64,000 nt of DNA from Escherichia phage ph0021. Position 1 is the first letter of the stretch; each line of letters starts with the position of its first letter. Where the stretch lies: sequence record OP557970.1. The stretch is one strand, 5' to 3'. The position numbers were made by a program, and so were the translations under genes. This document shows positions 79-36,845 of this stretch, in pieces. The notes beneath the pieces were generated by a model. The model was given only the letters and a program-made list of their open reading frames with translations. It did no database searches and was not told where the DNA came from.

Positions 79-3000
79 ATGGCCGAGATTAAAAGAAAGT
101 TCAGAGCAGAAGATGGTCTGGACGCAGGTGGCGATAAAATAATCAACGTAGCTTTAGCTGATCGTACCGTAGGAACTGACGGTGTTAACGTTGATTACTT
201 AATTCAAGAAAACACAGTTCAGCAATATGATCCAACTCGTGGATATTTAAAAGATTTTGTAATCATTTATAATAATCGTTTTTGGGCAGCAACGGATAAT
301 ATTCCAAAACCTGCTGGAAATTTTAATAGAATTCGTTGGAAAGCATTACGTACTGATGCTGTATATACAACTGTATCATCTGGACCATATCAATTAAAAT
401 CCGGAGAAGCAATTTCAGTAGATACATCAGTTGGCAATGACATTGAGTTTACTTTACCACCTTCTCCACTTGATGGAGAAACCGTAATAATTCAAGATAT
501 CGGTGGAAAACCTGGCATAAATCAGGTTAAAATAAATTCTTCAAATCAGAGTATTGTCAATTTTAGAGGTGAACAGGTACGTTCAGTTCTAATGACTCAT
601 CCAAAGTCACAGATGATATTCATTTTTAATAATCGTTTGTGGCAAATGTATGTTGCTGATTATAGCAGAGAAGCTGCGATTGTTACTCCATCGACTGCAT
701 ATCAAGCACAATCTAATGATTTTATCGTGCGTAGATTTACTTCCGCTGCGCCGATTAATGTTAAGCTTCCAAGATTTGCTAATCATGGCGATATTATTAA
801 TTTCGTTGATTTAGATAAATTAAATCCACTTTATCATACAATTGTCACGACATATGATGAAACAACTTCAGTACAAGAAGTTGGAACTCATTCTATTGAA
901 GGCCGTGCATCGATTGACGGTTTCTTGATGTTTGATGATAATGAAAAATTATGGAGATTGTTTGACGGGGATAGTAAAGCACGTTTACGCATTATAACAA
1001 CTAATTCTAATATTCGTCCAAATGAAGAAGTTATGGTATTTGGTGCGAATAACGGAACAGCCCAAACAATTGAACTTCAGCTTCCAACCGATATTTCCAT
1101 TGGTGATACTGTTAAAATTTCCATGAATTACATGAGAAAAGGACAAACAGTTAAAATCAAAGCTGCCGGTGAAGATAAAATTGCTTCTTCAGTTCAATTA
1201 CTGCAATTCCCAAAACGCTCAGAATATCCGCCTGAAGCTGAATGGGTGACTGTTCAAGAATTAGTTTTTAACGGTGAAACTAATTATGTTCCGGTTTTAC
1301 AACTTGCTTATATAGAAGATTCTGACGGAAAATACTGGGTTGTACAGCAAAACGTTCCAACAGTTGAAAGAGTCGATTCTTTAAATAATTCTACTAGAGC
1401 AAGATTAGGCGTAATAGCTTTAGCTACACAAGCTCAAGCAAATGCTGATTTAGAAAATTCTCCACAAAAAGAATTAGCAATTACACCAGAAACATTAGCT
1501 AACCGTACTGCTACAGAAACTCGCAGAGGTATTGCAAGAATAGCAACTACTGCTCAAGTAAATCAGAACACCACATTCTCTTTTGCAGATGACCTTATCA
1601 TCACTCCTAAAAAGCTGAATGAAAGAACTGCTACAGAAACTCGTAGAGGTGTCGCTGAAATTGCTACGCAGCAGGAAACTAATACAGGTACTGATGATAC
1701 TACAATCATCACTCCTAAAAAGCTTCAAGCTCGCCAAGGTTCTGAGTCATTATCTGGTATTGTAACCTTTGTATCTACGGCAGGTGCTACTCCAGCTTCT
1801 AGTCGTGAATTAAATGGTACAAATGTTTATAATAAAAACACTAATAACTTAGTTGTTTCACCTAAAGCCTTGGATCAGTATAAAGCTACTCCAACACAGC
1901 AAGGTGCAGTAATTTTAGCAGTTGAAAGTGAAGTAATTGCTGGACAAAGTCAGGAAGGATGGGCAAATGCTGTTGTAACGCCAGAAACGTTACATAAAAA
2001 GACATCAACTGATGGAAGAATTGGTTTAATTGAAATTGCTACGCAAAGTGAAGTTAATACAGGAACTGATTATACTCGTGCAGTCACTCCTAAAACTTTA
2101 AATGACCGTAGAGCAACTGAAAGTTTAAGTGGTATAGCTGAAATTGCTACACAAGTTGAATTCGACGCAGGCGTCGACGATACTCGTATCTCTACACCAT
2201 TAAAAATTAAAACTAGATTTAATAGTACTGATCGTACTTCTGTTGTTGCTCTATCTGGATTAGTTGAATCAGGAACTCTCTGGGACCATTATACCCTTAA
2301 TATTCTTGAAGCAAATGAGACACAGCGTGGCACACTTCGTGTGGCTACACAGGTTGAAGCTGCTGCAGGAACATTGGATAATGTTCTAATAACTCCTAAA
2401 AAGCTTTTAGGTACTAAATCTACTGAAGCGCAGGAAGGCGTTATTAAAGTTGCAACTCGGTCTGAAACTGTAGCTGGAACGTCAGCAAATACTGCTGTAT
2501 CTCCAAAAAATTTAAAATGGATTGTGCAGAGTGAACCTACTTGGGCAGCGACTACTGCGATAAGAGGTTTTGTTAAAACTTCGTCTGGTTCAATTACATT
2601 CGTTGGTAATGATACAGCTGGTTCAACACAGCCATTAGAATCATATGAGAAAAATGGTTATGCAGTATCACCATATGAATTAAATCGCGTATTAGCAAAT
2701 TATTTGCCGTTAAAAGCAAAAGCCGTAGATAGTAATTTACTGGATGGTCTAGATTCGCTCCAGTTCATTCGTAGGGACATTGCACAAACAGTTAATGGTT
2801 CACTAACCTTAACACAACAAACGAATCTGAGTGCCCCTCTTGTATCATCTAGTACTGCTACGTTCGGTGGATCAGTTTCAGCAAATAGTACACTAACTAT
2901 TTCTAATACTGGAACAGCAACTCGTCTGATTTTTGAGAAAGGACCTCAAACTGGAACAAACCCGGCTCAAACGATGACAGTCAGAGTGTGGGGAAATCAA

Positions 3001-3948
3001 TTTAGTGGGGAATCAGACACAACACGTTCTACCGTATTTGAAGTTAGTGATGAAACGTCTAGTCATTTTTATTCTCAGCGCAATAAAGCTGGAAATATAA
3101 CATTTAATATCAACGGTACAGTAACACCGATAAATGTTAATGCTTCAGGAACATTGAATGCAAATGGTGTAGCAACATTTGGTAATTCAGTCACTGCAAC
3201 TGGTGAAATTATTTCTCGAAGCGCAAATGCTTTCCGTGCTATTAACGGAAATTATGGTTTCATTGTTCGCAATGATGGGTCAGTAACGAATTTTATGCTT
3301 ACTGCATCGGGTGATCAGACTGGTGGATTTAATGGATTACGTCCTTTAGCTATTAATAATGCATCTGGTCAAGTAACGATTGGTGAAAGCTTAATCATTT
3401 CCAAAGGTGCTACTATAAGTTCAGGTGGTTTAACTGTTAACTCGAGAATTCGTTCTCAGGGTACTAAAACCTCTGATTTATATACCCGTGCGCCAACATC
3501 TGATACAGTAGGATTCTGGTCAATCGATATTAATGATTCAGCCACTTATAACCAGTTTCCGGGTTATTTTAAAATGGTTGAAAAAACTAATGAAGTTACT
3601 GGACTTCCATACTTAGAACGTGGTGAAGAAGTTAAATCTCCTGGTACATTGACTCAGTTTGGTAACACACTTGATTCACTTTACCAAGATTGGATTACTT
3701 ATCCAACGACTCCAGAAGCACGTACCACTCGCTGGACACGTACATGGCAGAAAACCAAAAACTCTTGGTCAAGTTTTGTTCAGGTATTTGACGGAGGTAA
3801 CCCTCCTCAACCTTCAGATATAGGAGCGATCCCATCTGATAACGGAATAATAGGTAATCTTACTATTCGCGATTTCTTGCGAATTGGTAATGTTCGCATT
3901 ATTCCTGACCCAGTGAATAAAACTGTTAAATTTGAGTGGATTGAATAA
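79..3948 (+). CDS. 34: long tail fiber proximal subunit gp34
   Basis: 1289-aa ORF; N-terminus MAEIKRKFRAEDGLDAGGDKIINVALADR and length match T-even gp34; internal RTATETRRG...ITPKKL repeats. Confidence 0.93.
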   Translation: MAEIKRKFRAEDGLDAGGDKIINVALADRTVGTDGVNVDYLIQENTVQQYDPTRGYLKDFVIIYNNRFWAATDNIPKPAGNFNRIRWKALRTDAVYTTVSSGPYQLKSGEAISVDTSVGNDIEFTLPPSPLDGETVIIQDIGGKPGINQVKINSSNQSIVNFRGEQVRSVLMTHPKSQMIFIFNNRLWQMYVADYSREAAIVTPSTAYQAQSNDFIVRRFTSAAPINVKLPRFANHGDIINFVDLDKLNPLYHTIVTTYDETTSVQEVGTHSIEGRASIDGFLMFDDNEKLWRLFDGDSKARLRIITTNSNIRPNEEVMVFGANNGTAQTIELQLPTDISIGDTVKISMNYMRKGQTVKIKAAGEDKIASSVQLLQFPKRSEYPPEAEWVTVQELVFNGETNYVPVLQLAYIEDSDGKYWVVQQNVPTVERVDSLNNSTRARLGVIALATQAQANADLENSPQKELAITPETLANRTATETRRGIARIATTAQVNQNTTFSFADDLIITPKKLNERTATETRRGVAEIATQQETNTGTDDTTIITPKKLQARQGSESLSGIVTFVSTAGATPASSRELNGTNVYNKNTNNLVVSPKALDQYKATPTQQGAVILAVESEVIAGQSQEGWANAVVTPETLHKKTSTDGRIGLIEIATQSEVNTGTDYTRAVTPKTLNDRRATESLSGIAEIATQVEFDAGVDDTRISTPLKIKTRFNSTDRTSVVALSGLVESGTLWDHYTLNILEANETQRGTLRVATQVEAAAGTLDNVLITPKKLLGTKSTEAQEGVIKVATRSETVAGTSANTAVSPKNLKWIVQSEPTWAATTAIRGFVKTSSGSITFVGNDTAGSTQPLESYEKNGYAVSPYELNRVLANYLPLKAKAVDSNLLDGLDSLQFIRRDIAQTVNGSLTLTQQTNLSAPLVSSSTATFGGSVSANSTLTISNTGTATRLIFEKGPQTGTNPAQTMTVRVWGNQFSGESDTTRSTVFEVSDETSSHFYSQRNKAGNITFNINGTVTPINVNASGTLNANGVATFGNSVTATGEIISRSANAFRAINGNYGFIVRNDGSVTNFMLTASGDQTGGFNGLRPLAINNASGQVTIGESLIISKGATISSGGLTVNSRIRSQGTKTSDLYTRAPTSDTVGFWSIDINDSATYNQFPGYFKMVEKTNEVTGLPYLERGEEVKSPGTLTQFGNTLDSLYQDWITYPTTPEARTTRWTRTWQKTKNSWSSFVQVFDGGNPPQPSDIGAIPSDNGIIGNLTIRDFLRIGNVRIIPDPVNKTVKFEWIE

Positions 3949-10282: not shown

Positions 10283-10555
10283 TTATTTGTTCGTATACAT
10301 CTCTAGATATCGATATACACCCTCAAAACCCTCGTTGAATTCGTCGATGAGGGTTTTCTTATCTTCTTGAGTTAATTCAGAAACAATTTTACGGAATGAA
10401 TTCTGATTTAACTTTCTACCTTCATGCGTTACTCCAATCTCATTCAGAAATGCAATAAAATTAGCACGATTCTCAACAATATCTTCTCTGGAAAATTTAA
10501 TCAAAATAGACGCAACAGTAATAATTTCACGAACTGTATCAATATTTTTATTCAT
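10283..10555 (-). CDS. asiA: anti-sigma-70 factor AsiA
   Basis: 90 aa; MNKNIDTVREIITVASILIKFSREDIVENRANFIAFLNEIGVTHEGRKL matches T4 AsiA. Confidence 0.95.
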   Translation of the reverse strand: MNKNIDTVREIITVASILIKFSREDIVENRANFIAFLNEIGVTHEGRKLNQNSFRKIVSELTQEDKKTLIDEFNEGFEGVYRYLEMYTNK

Positions 10556-12364: not shown

Positions 12365-12374
12365 TATTTATTCC

Positions 12375-17644: not shown

Positions 17645-17906
17645 TTAGACTTTCCTTTTTACCACTGAGATAAGCGTTATATACTTTAAGAGTGCCGTAA
17701 TAAATTCGGTCATTTTCATCTAAAGACTCGCGGTCAAGTTCATCAAGCTCCTTTTTATCCATGACTATAACATCATTACAGTAAAGAAACCCAAGTTTTT
17801 CGTGACCAAACTCAAATTTATTACAGTACACAATATTAGCGTGATGATTTCCGTGCAGTTTAATCTCTTTTATGTCGGAATCACCGATATTCATACAATA
17901 AATCAT
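17577..17906 (-). CDS. hypothetical protein (denB.1 position)
   Basis: 109-aa ORF; its 3' end overlaps the denB start. Confidence 0.45.
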   Translation of the reverse strand: MIYCMNIGDSDIKEIKLHGNHHANIVYCNKFEFGHEKLGFLYCNDVIVMDKKELDELDRESLDENDRIYYGTLKVYNAYLSGKKESLNAENESGFTETISDSDIYPIEQ

Positions 17907-17916
17907 AATTTTTCCT

Positions 17917-17941
17917 TAAAACAAAAGGGCCGAAGCCCTTT
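17917..17941 (-). terminator. terminator-like hairpin
   Basis: AAGGGCCGAAGCCCTT stem-loop followed by a T-run on the minus strand. Confidence 0.5.
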
Positions 17942-24530: not shown

Positions 24531-24628
24531 AATTTCCTCATTAATTGAACATTGGAGCGATGCGTTTCAGAAGAGTATCAGCGCACCTTTAACGAATTAT
24601 CCATTTTATTCTTCAAGTTGTTTTCTGT

Positions 24629-24671
24629 ATCAGTAGTTGATATTGATATAGTACCATAATCAACTACTGAT
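24629..24671 (-). repeat. 13-bp inverted repeat flanking a promoter-like -10 element
   Basis: ATCAGTAGTTGAT ... ATCAACTACTGAT with a 17-bp spacer containing TATAGTACC. Confidence 0.5.
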
Positions 24672-33718: not shown

Positions 33719-33962
33719 TTATTCACCAGTTACTTTCCACAAATCTTCATTTGCAGCAATCCATTCAGTACGTTGATTTTCTTCATATACTGTAGAATAT
33801 GCTGCTTTTTCTGAAGGGAACGTCTGGTAATGAGCACCAGAAATTTTGTGAACATCAGAATAAAGAGGGAAAGCTACAGAAATTTCTTTACCCTGAATTG
33901 TTACCACCATCAACTGCTTGGTCAAATGTTTTAATATTAACATAACCGCGAGTACTAGCCAT
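33719..33962 (-). CDS. soc: small outer capsid protein Soc, reading frame apparently interrupted
   Basis: ATG at 33962 gives MASTRGYVNIKTFDQAVDGGNNSG then a stop; a second frame from about 33900 gives ...GKEISVAFPLYSDVHKISGAHYQTFPSEKAAYSTVYEENQRTEWIAANEDLWKVTG, which matches the Soc C-terminus. Confidence 0.6.
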
Positions 33963-33978
33963 GTAATTCTCCTTTTAT

Positions 33979-34188
33979 TTAAATTACATGATTATTTATA
34001 ATAAATTCTCGCGGAACGTTAAAATACCCGATTTTAGTTAATATAACAACATCACCGTTAATAATTACCGGAGAATAATCTTCTGGAGCATTAAATTTCC
34101 AATGGGCTCTAATATTATATCCATCAGAACCAAATGCTCGAGTAGCCGGTCTCCCGGCTTTTTGCCACGCGTAGAAATCAAATTTCAT
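33979..34188 (-). CDS. hypothetical protein (soc-56 interval)
   Basis: 69-aa ORF; T4 has segF at this locus. Confidence 0.5.
   Translation of the reverse strand: MKFDFYAWQKAGRPATRAFGSDGYNIRAHWKFNAPEDYSPVIINGDVVILTKIGYFNVPREFIINNHVI
33993..34000 (-). promoter_or_regulatory. T4-type late promoter (TATAAATA) upstream of soc
   Basis: Exact TATAAATA on the minus strand about 30 nt upstream of the soc ATG. Confidence 0.55.
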
Positions 34189-34898: not shown

Positions 34899-35549
34899 TT
34901 ATTTTTCCTTTCTTATGAAGTTTTCTATCATATGTCTATAGCAGATATTAGGATAACCTGCCTTGACAGCTATTTTATTAAATTTTGTGCGCTTAGGTCT
35001 ATTATTATAAACCCATAATTCATAAAGCGCATCATAACTATTCCATATTTCTCCTCGCCTAGGATTTGGTAAACCATATCGAGGTGAATTTTTACCGCTA
35101 AATCTTCCTTTTCGGGCTTTACTCATATTAGCCTTGGCTTCATCGGATATAATTTTACCTTTATGAGCTAGACGCATTTTGGCTTTAGTTTCTTCTGGGG
35201 TCTTTTTGCCTTTAATCCATGACGGCTTGCCATATCTAGGATTATTTTCACCCGAGAAAAGAACAGAGTTTTGGATTTTAAGGGTTTCTATTAATCTACT
35301 TGTTAATTTAACACCTTTATTATATCGCATTAAATTTACAGCATAATGCAATCCTCTCACATCTGGATATATTTTAGTTAATAATCTATGAGCTATAAAA
35401 TGCTCACGCGCAGTTAACTCAACAAGATTGTTTTTGTCATCTGCTCCTCCTATACATCTAGGAATTATATGATGACGTTCTTTATATCCGCCAAGATGCC
35501 GGCATTTAGCTTTTGTAATTAAAGCCGAGTAAATTTTTTGGTAATTCAC
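34899..35549 (-). CDS. HNH-family homing endonuclease with NUMOD-like DNA-binding repeats
   Basis: HNH core ERHHIIPRCIGGADDKNNLVELTAREHFIAH; repeated NNPRYGKPS / KNSPRYGLPN motifs with GK..SEE.K.K.S.A.KG spacing; freestanding between 56 and 61. Confidence 0.75.
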   Translation of the reverse strand: MNYQKIYSALITKAKCRHLGGYKERHHIIPRCIGGADDKNNLVELTAREHFIAHRLLTKIYPDVRGLHYAVNLMRYNKGVKLTSRLIETLKIQNSVLFSGENNPRYGKPSWIKGKKTPEETKAKMRLAHKGKIISDEAKANMSKARKGRFSGKNSPRYGLPNPRRGEIWNSYDALYELWVYNNRPKRTKFNKIAVKAGYPNICYRHMIENFIRKEK

Positions 35550-35589
35550 ATATATCCTTTCAATTCATGGGTTAGTAGATTAATTATAC

Positions 35590-35597
35590 AATAAATA
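35590..35597 (+). promoter_or_regulatory. late-promoter-like element (AATAAATA) upstream of the plus-strand ORF
   Basis: One mismatch to TATAAATA, about 22 nt upstream of the ATG at 35620. Confidence 0.3.
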
Positions 35598-35619
35598 TAT
35601 AAAGCAATAAGGAGGACAT

Positions 35620-35820
35620 ATGGTACAAAAATTAATGGCACTTGTTGATGCCATAAAAGGTAATAAAAAACGTATAGCTTTTACTATTTCTGCTATGGTA
35701 GGAATTTTACTCTGGAACTTTATTTTATCACCCATTGCAATTGCACATGGTATTAATATTCCAGTAGTTACTCTTGATACATTCGTAGATTTAGCATTTG
35801 CTTTAGTTGGGTTAATTTAA
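35620..35820 (+). CDS. small membrane protein, the only plus-strand gene inside the early region
   Basis: 66 aa; strong RBS AAGGAGGA 7 nt before the ATG; TM segment ISAMVGILLWNFILSPIAIAHG; stop overlaps the gene 61 stop from the opposite strand. Confidence 0.45.
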   Translation: MVQKLMALVDAIKGNKKRIAFTISAMVGILLWNFILSPIAIAHGINIPVVTLDTFVDLAFALVGLI

Positions 35821-36845
35821 ATCTTAGCATATTTAGATAACCGCATTTTAGCCATCAACCCCTGTGCAATATTATTTTTCATATATTCCATAATTTGTTC
35901 AGGGGTTGCACCTTCCTTTCTAATCATATCATTAACATCTTTTGATTTCCAGGGAGATTTATCCCAAAACATAACTCTTTCTCCTGCATCAACTAATTTA
36001 GTCATTCGCTTGATAGTGTCAGGATGACGAGGTTCATTATCTAAAACCCACACTCGTCTATCTTTAAATGGAACAACTTCTAGGTCTAATTGACCACCCG
36101 TAATAGCTATACCATTTTCAATAAAAAGCGAATCTATAGGTCCTTCTAGAACATATACATCACCATCTTTAACTCGTTCGACTCCATATATTTTTGTTGC
36201 CTCAGGATAAGCTTTAATGGTGATATATTTTTGAGGAGCATCTTTCTTTAATGCACGTCCTTGAAAAGACTCAGCTTTTCCATTAGCATTATAAATTGGA
36301 ATAACAAGACGAGGCTCAGGTATTTCCTTTTTATATGTTCCCGGTGCTATGCTATTAACTAATTTAGGCCATTCGGTTGTAAACCAAAGATATTTCCATT
36401 TATCCTTTGGAATACAACGAGCTTTTACATATTTTATAATTGGATGGTCTTCCGCCAGTTTATCTAATCTAACACATGACGGAAGAGATTTAATTATTTT
36501 CTTCTCAGGTTGTTTAGGAAGTTCTTTAGGTTTTTCTACTGGACGACTTTTACCTTTTTCTTTTCTTATTTCAAAGATATACTCACGATATAAATCAGGT
36601 TCAAACTCCTTTAAATATATTCCGATTGGTGCATGATAGTTACAGTTATAACAATGAATATTTCCTTCATTATTATCGCCATAATACCATCCACGGGCTT
36701 TATTTTGGTCGGTTTTTGAATCTCCACAAACAGGGCATCTAAACCGCAATTTAAAAGTTGAACTATTATTTACTTGTGTGAATTTAGGTAAATGAGCTAA
36801 TGCACGGTATGCAAACTCATTATCAATCCAAGGTATTGATGACAT
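35817..36845 (-). CDS. 61: DNA primase gp61
   Basis: 342 aa, same as T4 gp61; zinc ribbon CPVCGDSK...CYNC. Confidence 0.95.
   Translation of the reverse strand: MSSIPWIDNEFAYRALAHLPKFTQVNNSSTFKLRFRCPVCGDSKTDQNKARGWYYGDNNEGNIHCYNCNYHAPIGIYLKEFEPDLYREYIFEIRKEKGKSRPVEKPKELPKQPEKKIIKSLPSCVRLDKLAEDHPIIKYVKARCIPKDKWKYLWFTTEWPKLVNSIAPGTYKKEIPEPRLVIPIYNANGKAESFQGRALKKDAPQKYITIKAYPEATKIYGVERVKDGDVYVLEGPIDSLFIENGIAITGGQLDLEVVPFKDRRVWVLDNEPRHPDTIKRMTKLVDAGERVMFWDKSPWKSKDVNDMIRKEGATPEQIMEYMKNNIAQGLMAKMRLSKYAKI

Follow-up and report, generated by a model that had tools for sequence, protein, structure and literature searches.

Why should one small open reading frame (ORF) run against nearly all of its neighbours? 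In the 64,000-nucleotide stretch of Escherichia phage ph0021 analysed here (OP557970.1; hereafter the window), the genes from position 10283 to 64000 lie almost without exception on the minus strand, while an ORF of 66 codons at 35620-35820 lies on the plus strand, between an HNH endonuclease gene and gene 61, which encodes the DNA primase. The original prediction, made from the letters of the sequence, had read this ORF as the gene of a small membrane protein that might have arrived with the endonuclease gene and might act as an exclusion factor or toxin-like peptide. Comparisons across T4-like phages indicate that the ORF is a real protein-coding gene, under purifying selection and resident 3' of gene 61. 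Taken together, the evidence presented below makes it quite probable that this is a resident, conserved late gene of the T-even-type phages and that its product is a small inner-membrane protein.

The window is identical (100%) to the reverse complement of positions 77643-141642 of phage PsgM02F (OR584013.1). Its gene content, and its 95-99% identity to hundreds of coliphages, place it in a T4-type phage of the genus Tequatrovirus. The features on which the argument turns first are as follows.

35620..35820, plus strand: 66-codon gene for a probable small inner-membrane protein, with an ATG start and a TAA stop at 35818-35820; family phrog_2024; WYA84085.1, 'hypothetical protein', in PsgM02F
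35609..35616, plus strand: Shine-Dalgarno (SD) sequence AAGGAGGA, with 4 nt separating GGAGG from the ATG
35817..36845, minus strand: gene 61 (DNA primase), convergent neighbour of the ORF; the two stops overlap by 4 nt (TTAA)

A conserved protein-coding gene opposite the primase gene

The ORF, its SD sequence and a box upstream of it were all found where the original prediction had placed them, and the overlapping stops confirm that the ORF converges on gene 61. The prediction's description of the strands was almost exact: when checked against the PsgM02F annotation, the region from 10283 to 64000 contains one other plus-strand gene, a 35-amino-acid (aa) coding sequence (CDS) at 24552-24659, between motB and cef. 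This CDS starts with TTG, has neither an SD sequence nor a late promoter box, and is probably a spurious over-prediction.

The ORF product matches the hidden Markov model (HMM) of phrog_2024 with an E value of 3.9e-31, residues 2-66 aligning with profile positions 1-65 of 65, and it agrees with the other members of this family (the 'RB32ORF030w' proteins) in size, position and strand, with no difference. Searches with tblastn found the ORF in 692 phage records, in 685 of them at a coverage of at least 80%. The matches include T4 and T2, whose copies are about 94-95% identical to the window protein, RB51 (the source of the name 'RB32ORF030w'), Mosigvirus (about 52% identity) and Gaprivervirus (43-51%), and in phages 55 and 107 the family member is labelled 'putative transmembrane protein'. 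The sequence is therefore already known: hundreds of phage genomes list a 'hypothetical protein' for it, and it has a PHROG family. More diverged homologues that were missed by sequence search were located with the primase as a positional anchor, yielding proteins of 63 aa in Jiaodavirus, 66 aa in Dhakavirus and 61 aa in Kanagawavirus. At every family locus examined, in Tequatrovirus, Mosigvirus, Gaprivervirus, Dhakavirus, Jiaodavirus and Kanagawavirus, the homologue lies directly 3' of gene 61 on the opposite strand, and the frame is open at 61-66 codons throughout these six genera. The stop codons of the homologue and of gene 61 overlap by 4 nt in Tequatrovirus, Mosigvirus, Dhakavirus, Kanagawavirus and, through the B copy described below, Gaprivervirus, which makes five of the six genera. 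Conservation of the ORF where the locus is shared, on which the earlier reading had staked itself, was thus found in 692 phage records and six genera.

A profile that included the diverged homologues gathered about 120 clusters at 90% identity, with lengths of 41-74 aa (most 56-74); nearly all of their named sources are T4-like phages, and none of these clusters carries a credible functional name. An exhaustive HMMER search of 1.84 billion representatives added Mosigvirus and Gaprivervirus members only. Three long repeat proteins from that search were rejected as spurious, their scores being sums of many weak stretches (PQQ-propeller-like LLWNY, SH3-like repeats). A single-sequence word-indexed protein search reached close relatives only.

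The pattern of substitution is that of a translated frame. The ratio of nonsynonymous to synonymous polymorphism (pN/pS) in the ORF frame is 0.17 both in Tequatrovirus (15 unique CDS) and in Mosigvirus (8 unique CDS). Counted by codon position, the variable columns number 10/3/14, 6/1/17 and 13/4/10 in three clades, or 29/8/41 when pooled. Between genera, synonymous divergence (dS) exceeds 1 and nonsynonymous divergence (dN) is about 0.45-0.55, with the length constant at 65-66 codons. The frame is open in all 28 of the unique CDS from three genera, between which synonymous sites are saturated; as estimated from base composition, the chance of an open frame of 66 codons in such AT-rich DNA is about 0.8%. 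At the protein level, W32, N33 and P38 are invariant in 27 diverse members, which outside the type-A clades (see below) are only 16-31% identical to the window protein. In the same set A40, G44, P48 and G64 are nearly invariant and position 53 is acidic in almost every member. The family match, the conservation and the purifying selection together bear out the claim of a genuine plus-strand gene with a strong SD sequence.

A probable late promoter box ahead of the gene

When in the infection would such a gene be read? The sequence immediately upstream of the SD suggests an answer.

35590..35597, plus strand: AATAAATA, probably a late promoter box of the gp55 type, from which transcription is predicted to start near 35603

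In T4, late promoters have the consensus TATAAATA over positions -13 to -6. T4-like phages vary at the first of these positions, -13, where A is frequent and either A or T is normal (Nolan et al., 2006, PMC1524935). The heptamer ATAAATA is about fivefold depleted in the window, with 8 copies on the two strands against the 38 +/- 6.7 expected from shuffled sequence. Of the seven copies other than that at the ORF, six precede genes that are transcribed late in T4: soc, gp34 (at 34 nt), gp36 (23 nt), gp37 (178 nt), holin t (18 nt) and gp49 (30 nt); at the ORF the distance from the box to the ATG is 22 nt. The seventh copy, AATAAATA at 12365-12372 on the minus strand, abuts (0 nt) the CDS that follows motA, and is the only one not sensibly upstream of a known late gene.

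The box is also conserved with the gene. In all 14 first-in-line loci, drawn from six genera, the ATG is preceded by [A/C/G]ATAAATA at 12-22 nt and then by an SD sequence (AAGGAG, AGGAGG or GGAGG) at 4-7 nt, although the flanks have diverged. It is kept in at least five unrelated upstream contexts, namely beside dam, beside the HNH gene, beside gene 56, and in the Jiaodavirus and Kanagawavirus versions of the locus. Given the depletion of the heptamer and its conservation in six genera, the late-promoter-like box that had been noticed earlier is plausibly real, and a gp55-type late promoter is likely to drive the ORF. Late in infection, RNA polymerase carrying gp55 would then start near 35603, and the strong SD sequence in the leader of about 17 nt would drive translation of the 66-residue protein. 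Folding of the predicted leader gave no unusually stable structure (z = -0.9).

Candidate signals on the minus strand

The same stretch of DNA carries candidate signals for the opposite strand, and these raise the question of which strand its conservation serves.

35635..35654, minus strand: 7-bp hairpin with UUAAUUUUUGU (U-tract) after it, inside codons 6-12 of the ORF; a candidate intrinsic terminator at which gene 61 transcripts may end
35583..35606, minus strand: middle-promoter-like element for the HNH/gene 56 unit, with a MotA box TGCTTTA at 35606-35600, an 11-nt spacer and a -10 element TATAAT at 35588-35583

The hairpin has a folding energy of -8.2 kcal/mol (z = -2.1) and is present in T4 and not in Mosigvirus. 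If it terminates the gene 61 mRNA, about 180 nt of 3' untranslated region (3'UTR) would follow the coding part of that message and would be antisense to nearly all of the ORF. The arrangement TGCTTTA-11 nt-TATAAT fits the pattern of a MotA-dependent T4 middle promoter. The annotators of phage fPS-2 predicted a terminator at the place equivalent to the hairpin, and their record has a 'predicted middle promoter' at the position equivalent to the second element.

One could therefore propose that the ORF is not translated at all, that the region is conserved for minus-strand signals (the gene 61 3'UTR, the terminator and the promoter of the downstream gene), and that the open frame is incidental. 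The hairpin and U-tract do lie inside the ORF, the middle-promoter-like element does overlap the region upstream of it, and the annotators of the T4 reference called no gene here. However, Mosigvirus, which has no hairpin, still keeps the ORF; the frame has stayed open in six genera despite saturated synonymous divergence; the pooled counts given above (29/8/41) show strong protection of second codon positions; the amino-acid motifs are invariant though the DNA has diverged; the SD sequence and ATG are conserved everywhere; and a non-coding gap of 200 nt would be unusual in genomes so tightly packed. We consider this explanation very unlikely. The related idea that the late box is conserved merely as the spacer of the middle promoter was rejected, as the box is kept without that promoter in the T4/dam, Dhakavirus, Kanagawavirus and Jiaodavirus contexts.

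A second possibility is that the late promoter matters mainly for the RNA that it makes. A terminator scan found no plus-strand terminator within 3.7 kb downstream of the ORF, so that a late transcript would run antisense into gene 61. On this account, RNA antisense to gene 61 and to the genes beyond it would shut off early replication genes late in infection, and the peptide would be secondary. That the convergent stops overlap by 4 nt in all but one of the six genera is consistent with such a role, and a precedent, antisense transcription of T4 gene 32, is cited in PMC3014915. The account leaves the purifying selection on the protein and the invariant residues unexplained, however. Moreover, Jiaodavirus has a GC-rich bidirectional hairpin between the ORF and the primase gene that would block read-through, yet the ORF and the box are kept there, and in Gaprivervirus a second protein-coding paralog lies between the ORF and the primase gene. 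Antisense regulation is thus unlikely to be what the locus is for. It is compatible with a protein-coding late gene as an additional effect, and any effect on gene 61 may plausibly be a side consequence of that gene's transcription and not its main function.

Relationship to the HNH endonuclease gene

Was the ORF brought in by the mobile gene beside it? The endonuclease gene and its counterparts are placed as follows.

34899..35549, minus strand: free-standing HNH/NUMOD3 homing endonuclease gene, with NUMOD3 and HNH matches (phrog_655), directly upstream of gene 56; an independent insertion
HNH/NUMOD3 copies at the one site: window 34899-35549 (minus strand; Tequatrovirus); locus L018 1029-2201 (Mosigvirus); locus L019 2556-3206 (Jiaodavirus)

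Around the ORF, the genes of the window run in the order soc, gene 56 (dCTPase), HNH, ORF, gene 61 (primase), 61.1, 61.2-like, sp, 61.4-like, dmd and gene 41. The start of the HNH gene is 70 nt from the ORF, the two genes being divergent. Homing endonuclease genes are known to drag flanking DNA along, and in 29 phage records the entire block of HNH gene and ORF is found at 95-100% identity (counted at 80% or more of a 1.2-kb query), so that the adjacency could suggest that the ORF is cargo of an HNH cassette, as the original prediction had allowed. The co-occurrence of the two genes, which it had proposed to examine, speaks strongly against this. Most of the 692 records that have the ORF do not have the HNH gene. 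In T4 and T2 that side of the ORF is occupied by dam (in T4 the order is 56-dam-ORF-61), which is missing from the window's locus (56-HNH-ORF-61); phage ELT1 has 56-HNH-dam-ORF-61; and in Mosigvirus phage 55 the order is 56-ORF-61, with no HNH gene. Furthermore, the same HNH gene (91-97% nucleotide identity) occupies this site also in Mosigvirus SSE1 and Jiaodavirus KEN25_1, beside ORF versions that are 52% and 26% identical to that of the window. Genus-specific versions of the ORF beside the same HNH gene mean that the ORF tracks its host genus and not the endonuclease.

The distribution across phages thus refutes a shared arrival, and the cargo explanation is exceedingly unlikely. The HNH gene recurs at this locus and appears to target one site; the ORF is the resident and was there first, the HNH gene having been inserted later, between gene 56 and the ORF. 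The locus accordingly presents a single intergenic site at which a free-standing HNH gene recurs in three genera, without the neighbouring gene being carried along. In SSE1, a Shigella phage, loss of the stop of the HNH ORF has left it as an in-frame fusion with gp56 (…FIRKENN-MPHFNECSQ…, 390 aa).

Architecture of the predicted protein

An AlphaFold2 (AF2) model built from a 27-sequence alignment has a mean predicted local distance difference test score (pLDDT) of 81 and consists of an amphipathic helix (residues 2-12), a long helix (16-42), a loop (43-51, HGINIPVVT) and a final helix of 12 residues (52-63). Hydropathy, the AF2 helix 16-42 and the asymmetry of charge all support the earlier description of a small protein with one transmembrane (TM) helix. 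The side N-terminal to the helix has a positive net charge (median +3) and the C-terminal side a charge of 0 to -2 in 23 of the 27 members; among the remaining four, P0109, P0121 and P0124 are about neutral, and in P0103 the TM window was misplaced. By the positive-inside rule, this asymmetry predicts an orientation with the N-terminus in and the C-terminus out. In the model, residues 1-18 would form a basic amphipathic N-terminus in the cytoplasm, residues from about 19 to 42 a single, marginally hydrophobic helix across the inner membrane, and the final 24 residues a loop followed by a short amphipathic helix, bearing the conserved acidic residue, at the periplasmic face.

The invariant W32-N33 and P38 and the nearly invariant A40, G44 and P48 are gathered in the loop and towards the periplasmic end of the helix. 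This clustering suggests that the protein most likely works through a surface on the outer side of the inner membrane and would meet another membrane protein there.

The same features might instead be those of a cleavable signal, cut after P38-x-A40-x-[A/S/T]42 to free an active periplasmic peptide of 24 residues. Across most of the family there is a P at -5, an A at -3 and a small residue at -1 (position 42/43), a basic n-region precedes the hydrophobic stretch, and this stretch is only marginally hydrophobic, being rich in Gly, Ala, Ser and Thr in several clades. But a hydrophobic core of about 19-24 residues, as found here, is long for a cleaved signal peptide; Mosigvirus has L at position 40; and the invariant W32-N33 would lie inside the segment to be discarded. 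Cleavage therefore seems quite improbable to us, and we retain the single-pass membrane protein as the better description.

Divergence, duplication and loss in the family

Family members fall into two types. Type A (…AIKGNKK…LWNF…HG…) is found in Tequatrovirus, Mosigvirus and Gaprivervirus, and type B (…IWKL..KKDKK…LWNL…QG…) in Dhakavirus, which has type B only, and in several Klebsiella phages. Gaprivervirus VR25 and VR26 have both, as tandem A and then B paralogs separated by 8 nt, with a late box before A alone (loci L012 and L013, 1495-1692 and 1701-1901). Elsewhere in that genus the B copy is decaying, being partially deleted in TH40 (locus L005, 2693-2811) and frameshifted in locus L016 (1693-1900). 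The window itself holds no paralog: the family HMM, run against all of its ORFs, matched the ORF alone. A fold search found a further relative, of 63 aa, in Enterobacter phage CIP9.

The protein evolves much faster than the neighbouring primase. Between the window and Mosigvirus the ORF product is 52% identical and the primase 74%; between the window and Dhakavirus the figures are about 18-23% and 61%. Such rapid divergence, duplication and loss would be typical, we infer, of accessory host-interaction genes and not of core morphogenesis genes.

Weighing the evidence and a possible function

Several results weigh against reading the ORF as a conserved late gene for an envelope protein, and they should be set out together. 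Constraint is weaker in Gaprivervirus, where pN/pS is 0.56 (5 sequences), and in Mosigvirus one antisense frame has a pN/pS as low (0.15) as that of the ORF. A low value is to be expected of a frame that has wobble positions in common with the sense frame; this one is not open, and no minus-strand ORF in the window's ORF list spans the region. The box in the window is a one-mismatch variant of the consensus, that of T4 itself (GATAAATA) is less typical still, and the window box lies inside the spacer of the minus-strand middle-promoter-like element, which may account for part of the local conservation. The hydrophobicity of the TM segment is marginal, with a summed deltaG of -1.1 to +3.7 kcal/mol (scale values of Hessa et al., 2005), and type B members carry an Asp in its core, so that stable insertion is not certain. 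The family is missing after gene 61 in Karamvirus EnA02, Winklervirus LC53, Krischvirus KFS-EC or Biquartavirus 31.2, and it is thus not essential to T4-type phages. As to function, nothing links the ORF specifically to lysis, it lies outside any lysis cassette, and alignment of profiles with hhalign gave probabilities of 0.4% for RI, 0.5% for holin T and 0.4% for Imm, that is, no similarity. Finally, the literature available to us contained no functional or expression study of the ORF and no mention of its omission from the T4 reference. This agrees with the earlier description of its function as undescribed, the family having no assigned function and no publication on it having been found.

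Searches for known relatives were likewise negative. No model exceeded the threshold in Pfam or NCBIfam (six diverse members) or in PADLOC-DB (four members, E <= 1), and weak matches to YwcE, SNARE and SspI were dismissed as far below the cutoff. Foldseek returned only family members from BFVD and nothing from the PDB. Together with the hhalign results, these searches found no similarity to known exclusion, toxin, holin or defence families; the proposal of an exclusion factor or toxin is neither borne out nor refuted.

Tentatively, we suggest that the ORF may encode a late accessory envelope factor, the most likely task of which would be to tune lysis timing or envelope integrity, or else exclusion; this remains a minority possibility in our own estimate. 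The most obvious competing role is that of a holin-like or pinholin-like lysis protein, or of a membrane toxin resembling a type I toxin that is held in check by the antisense 3'UTR of gene 61. The protein is small and hydrophobic, the late boxes of the ORF and of holin t are alike in form and spacing, one UniProt entry of the family is named 'Holin' (which appears to be an automatic name), and there is a sub-threshold match to the holin-like YwcE (E 0.02; 16 bits, cutoff 25). If the hairpin terminates transcription, the gene 61 3'UTR would be antisense to nearly the whole ORF, as noted above. On the other hand, no holin family of Pfam or NCBIfam was matched at threshold, and hhalign against T gave the 0.5% already mentioned. 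Typical holins have a highly charged C-terminus, and small holins have a second spanning helix. The ORF product is the reverse, with a hydrophobic C-terminus (…AFALVGLI) and its charge cluster at the N-terminus, and of its helices the second has 12 residues and one (16-42) is long enough to span the membrane. No endolysin or spanin gene adjoins the ORF, and the lysis set of T4 is complete without it (t, e, rI, rIII and the spanins). We therefore give a holin-like or toxin-like role little credence, and a stand-alone holin or toxin is unlikely. In the T4-like cyanophage S-CREM1 of Synechococcus (OP535465.1, region 2453-3448), a small gene annotated as 'holin-like protein' lies between the primase gene and nrdA.

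Comparison with the characterised small envelope proteins of these phages shows both likenesses and differences. T4 holin T and the class II holins and pinholins (S21) are also small late inner-membrane proteins, and in the window holin t has AATAAATA 18 nt before its ATG; but they share no sequence or profile similarity with the ORF product, whose charge is N-terminal, which has one spanning helix and whose gene is not linked to an endolysin or spanin gene. T4 RI, a signal-anchor-release antiholin, resembles the ORF product in having an N-terminal, weakly hydrophobic membrane segment with an LSP motif and a periplasmic C-terminus. It differs in its globular periplasmic domain of about 70 residues, where the ORF product has 24 residues beyond the membrane. 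Imm and Sp are small envelope proteins of the same phage, and sp lies 1.5 kb from the ORF in the same gene block, but both are encoded by minus-strand early or middle genes, whereas the ORF lies on the late strand and has a late box. With type I toxin-antitoxin systems the ORF would share a hydrophobic peptide, here of about 60 aa, and a coding region fully overlapped by a convergent transcript; here, however, the antisense partner is the 3'UTR of an mRNA and not a dedicated small RNA, the hairpin is not conserved outside Tequatrovirus, and PADLOC gave no match.

Other observations on the window

Two further points concern the window itself. The soc gene (33719-33990, minus strand) is split by a frameshift, with MASTRGYVNIKTFDQAVDGGNNSG* in one frame and the remainder (…IQGKEISVAFPLYSDVHK…) in another, and the PsgM02F record annotates only the 63-aa 3' part. 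This may be either a sequencing error or a genuine pseudogene; the soc late box TATAAATA is intact at 34000-33993. The PsgM02F record gives as host Pseudomonas coronafaciens, from coffee leaves, yet the sequence is that of a typical Tequatrovirus, 96-100% identical to T4-like phages of Escherichia, Shigella and Yersinia, and the host assignment looks doubtful.

Absence from the T4 reference annotation and its implications

In the T4 reference (NC_000866 / AF158101) the ORF is present at 17738-17938 on the plus strand (2239-2439 of locus L003), within the 309-bp gap between dam and gene 61, where it is unannotated; the T4 copy carries both an SD sequence and the box GATAAATA. More recent records of T4 and T2 do include it, as a hypothetical protein. 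Few viruses have been studied as thoroughly as T4, yet this gap in its reference holds a gene that at least six genera have conserved. The ORF would go unnamed in any screen, transcriptome table or proteome search that uses the reference gene list. Annotating 17738-17938 (plus strand) in T4 would be cheap and would make the gene testable.

What the gene may contribute can be put forward only with reserve. It is possible, though we hold it at less than even weight, that the ORF encodes an unrecognised late component of the T-even phages, a single-pass protein that would use its juxtamembrane motif (W-N-x4-P…G…P) to engage an inner-membrane partner and so control lysis timing or inhibition, envelope integrity or the entry of competing phages. 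If so, its divergence, the A/B duplication and the decay of the B copy would mark an arms-race interface, one that has gone unstudied in T4 since the reference omits the gene. Should the protein prove to have no measurable effect, it would be another of the many small accessory ORFs of the T-even phages; should it act on lysis timing, envelope integrity or exclusion, it would be a new component in a system considered fully catalogued.

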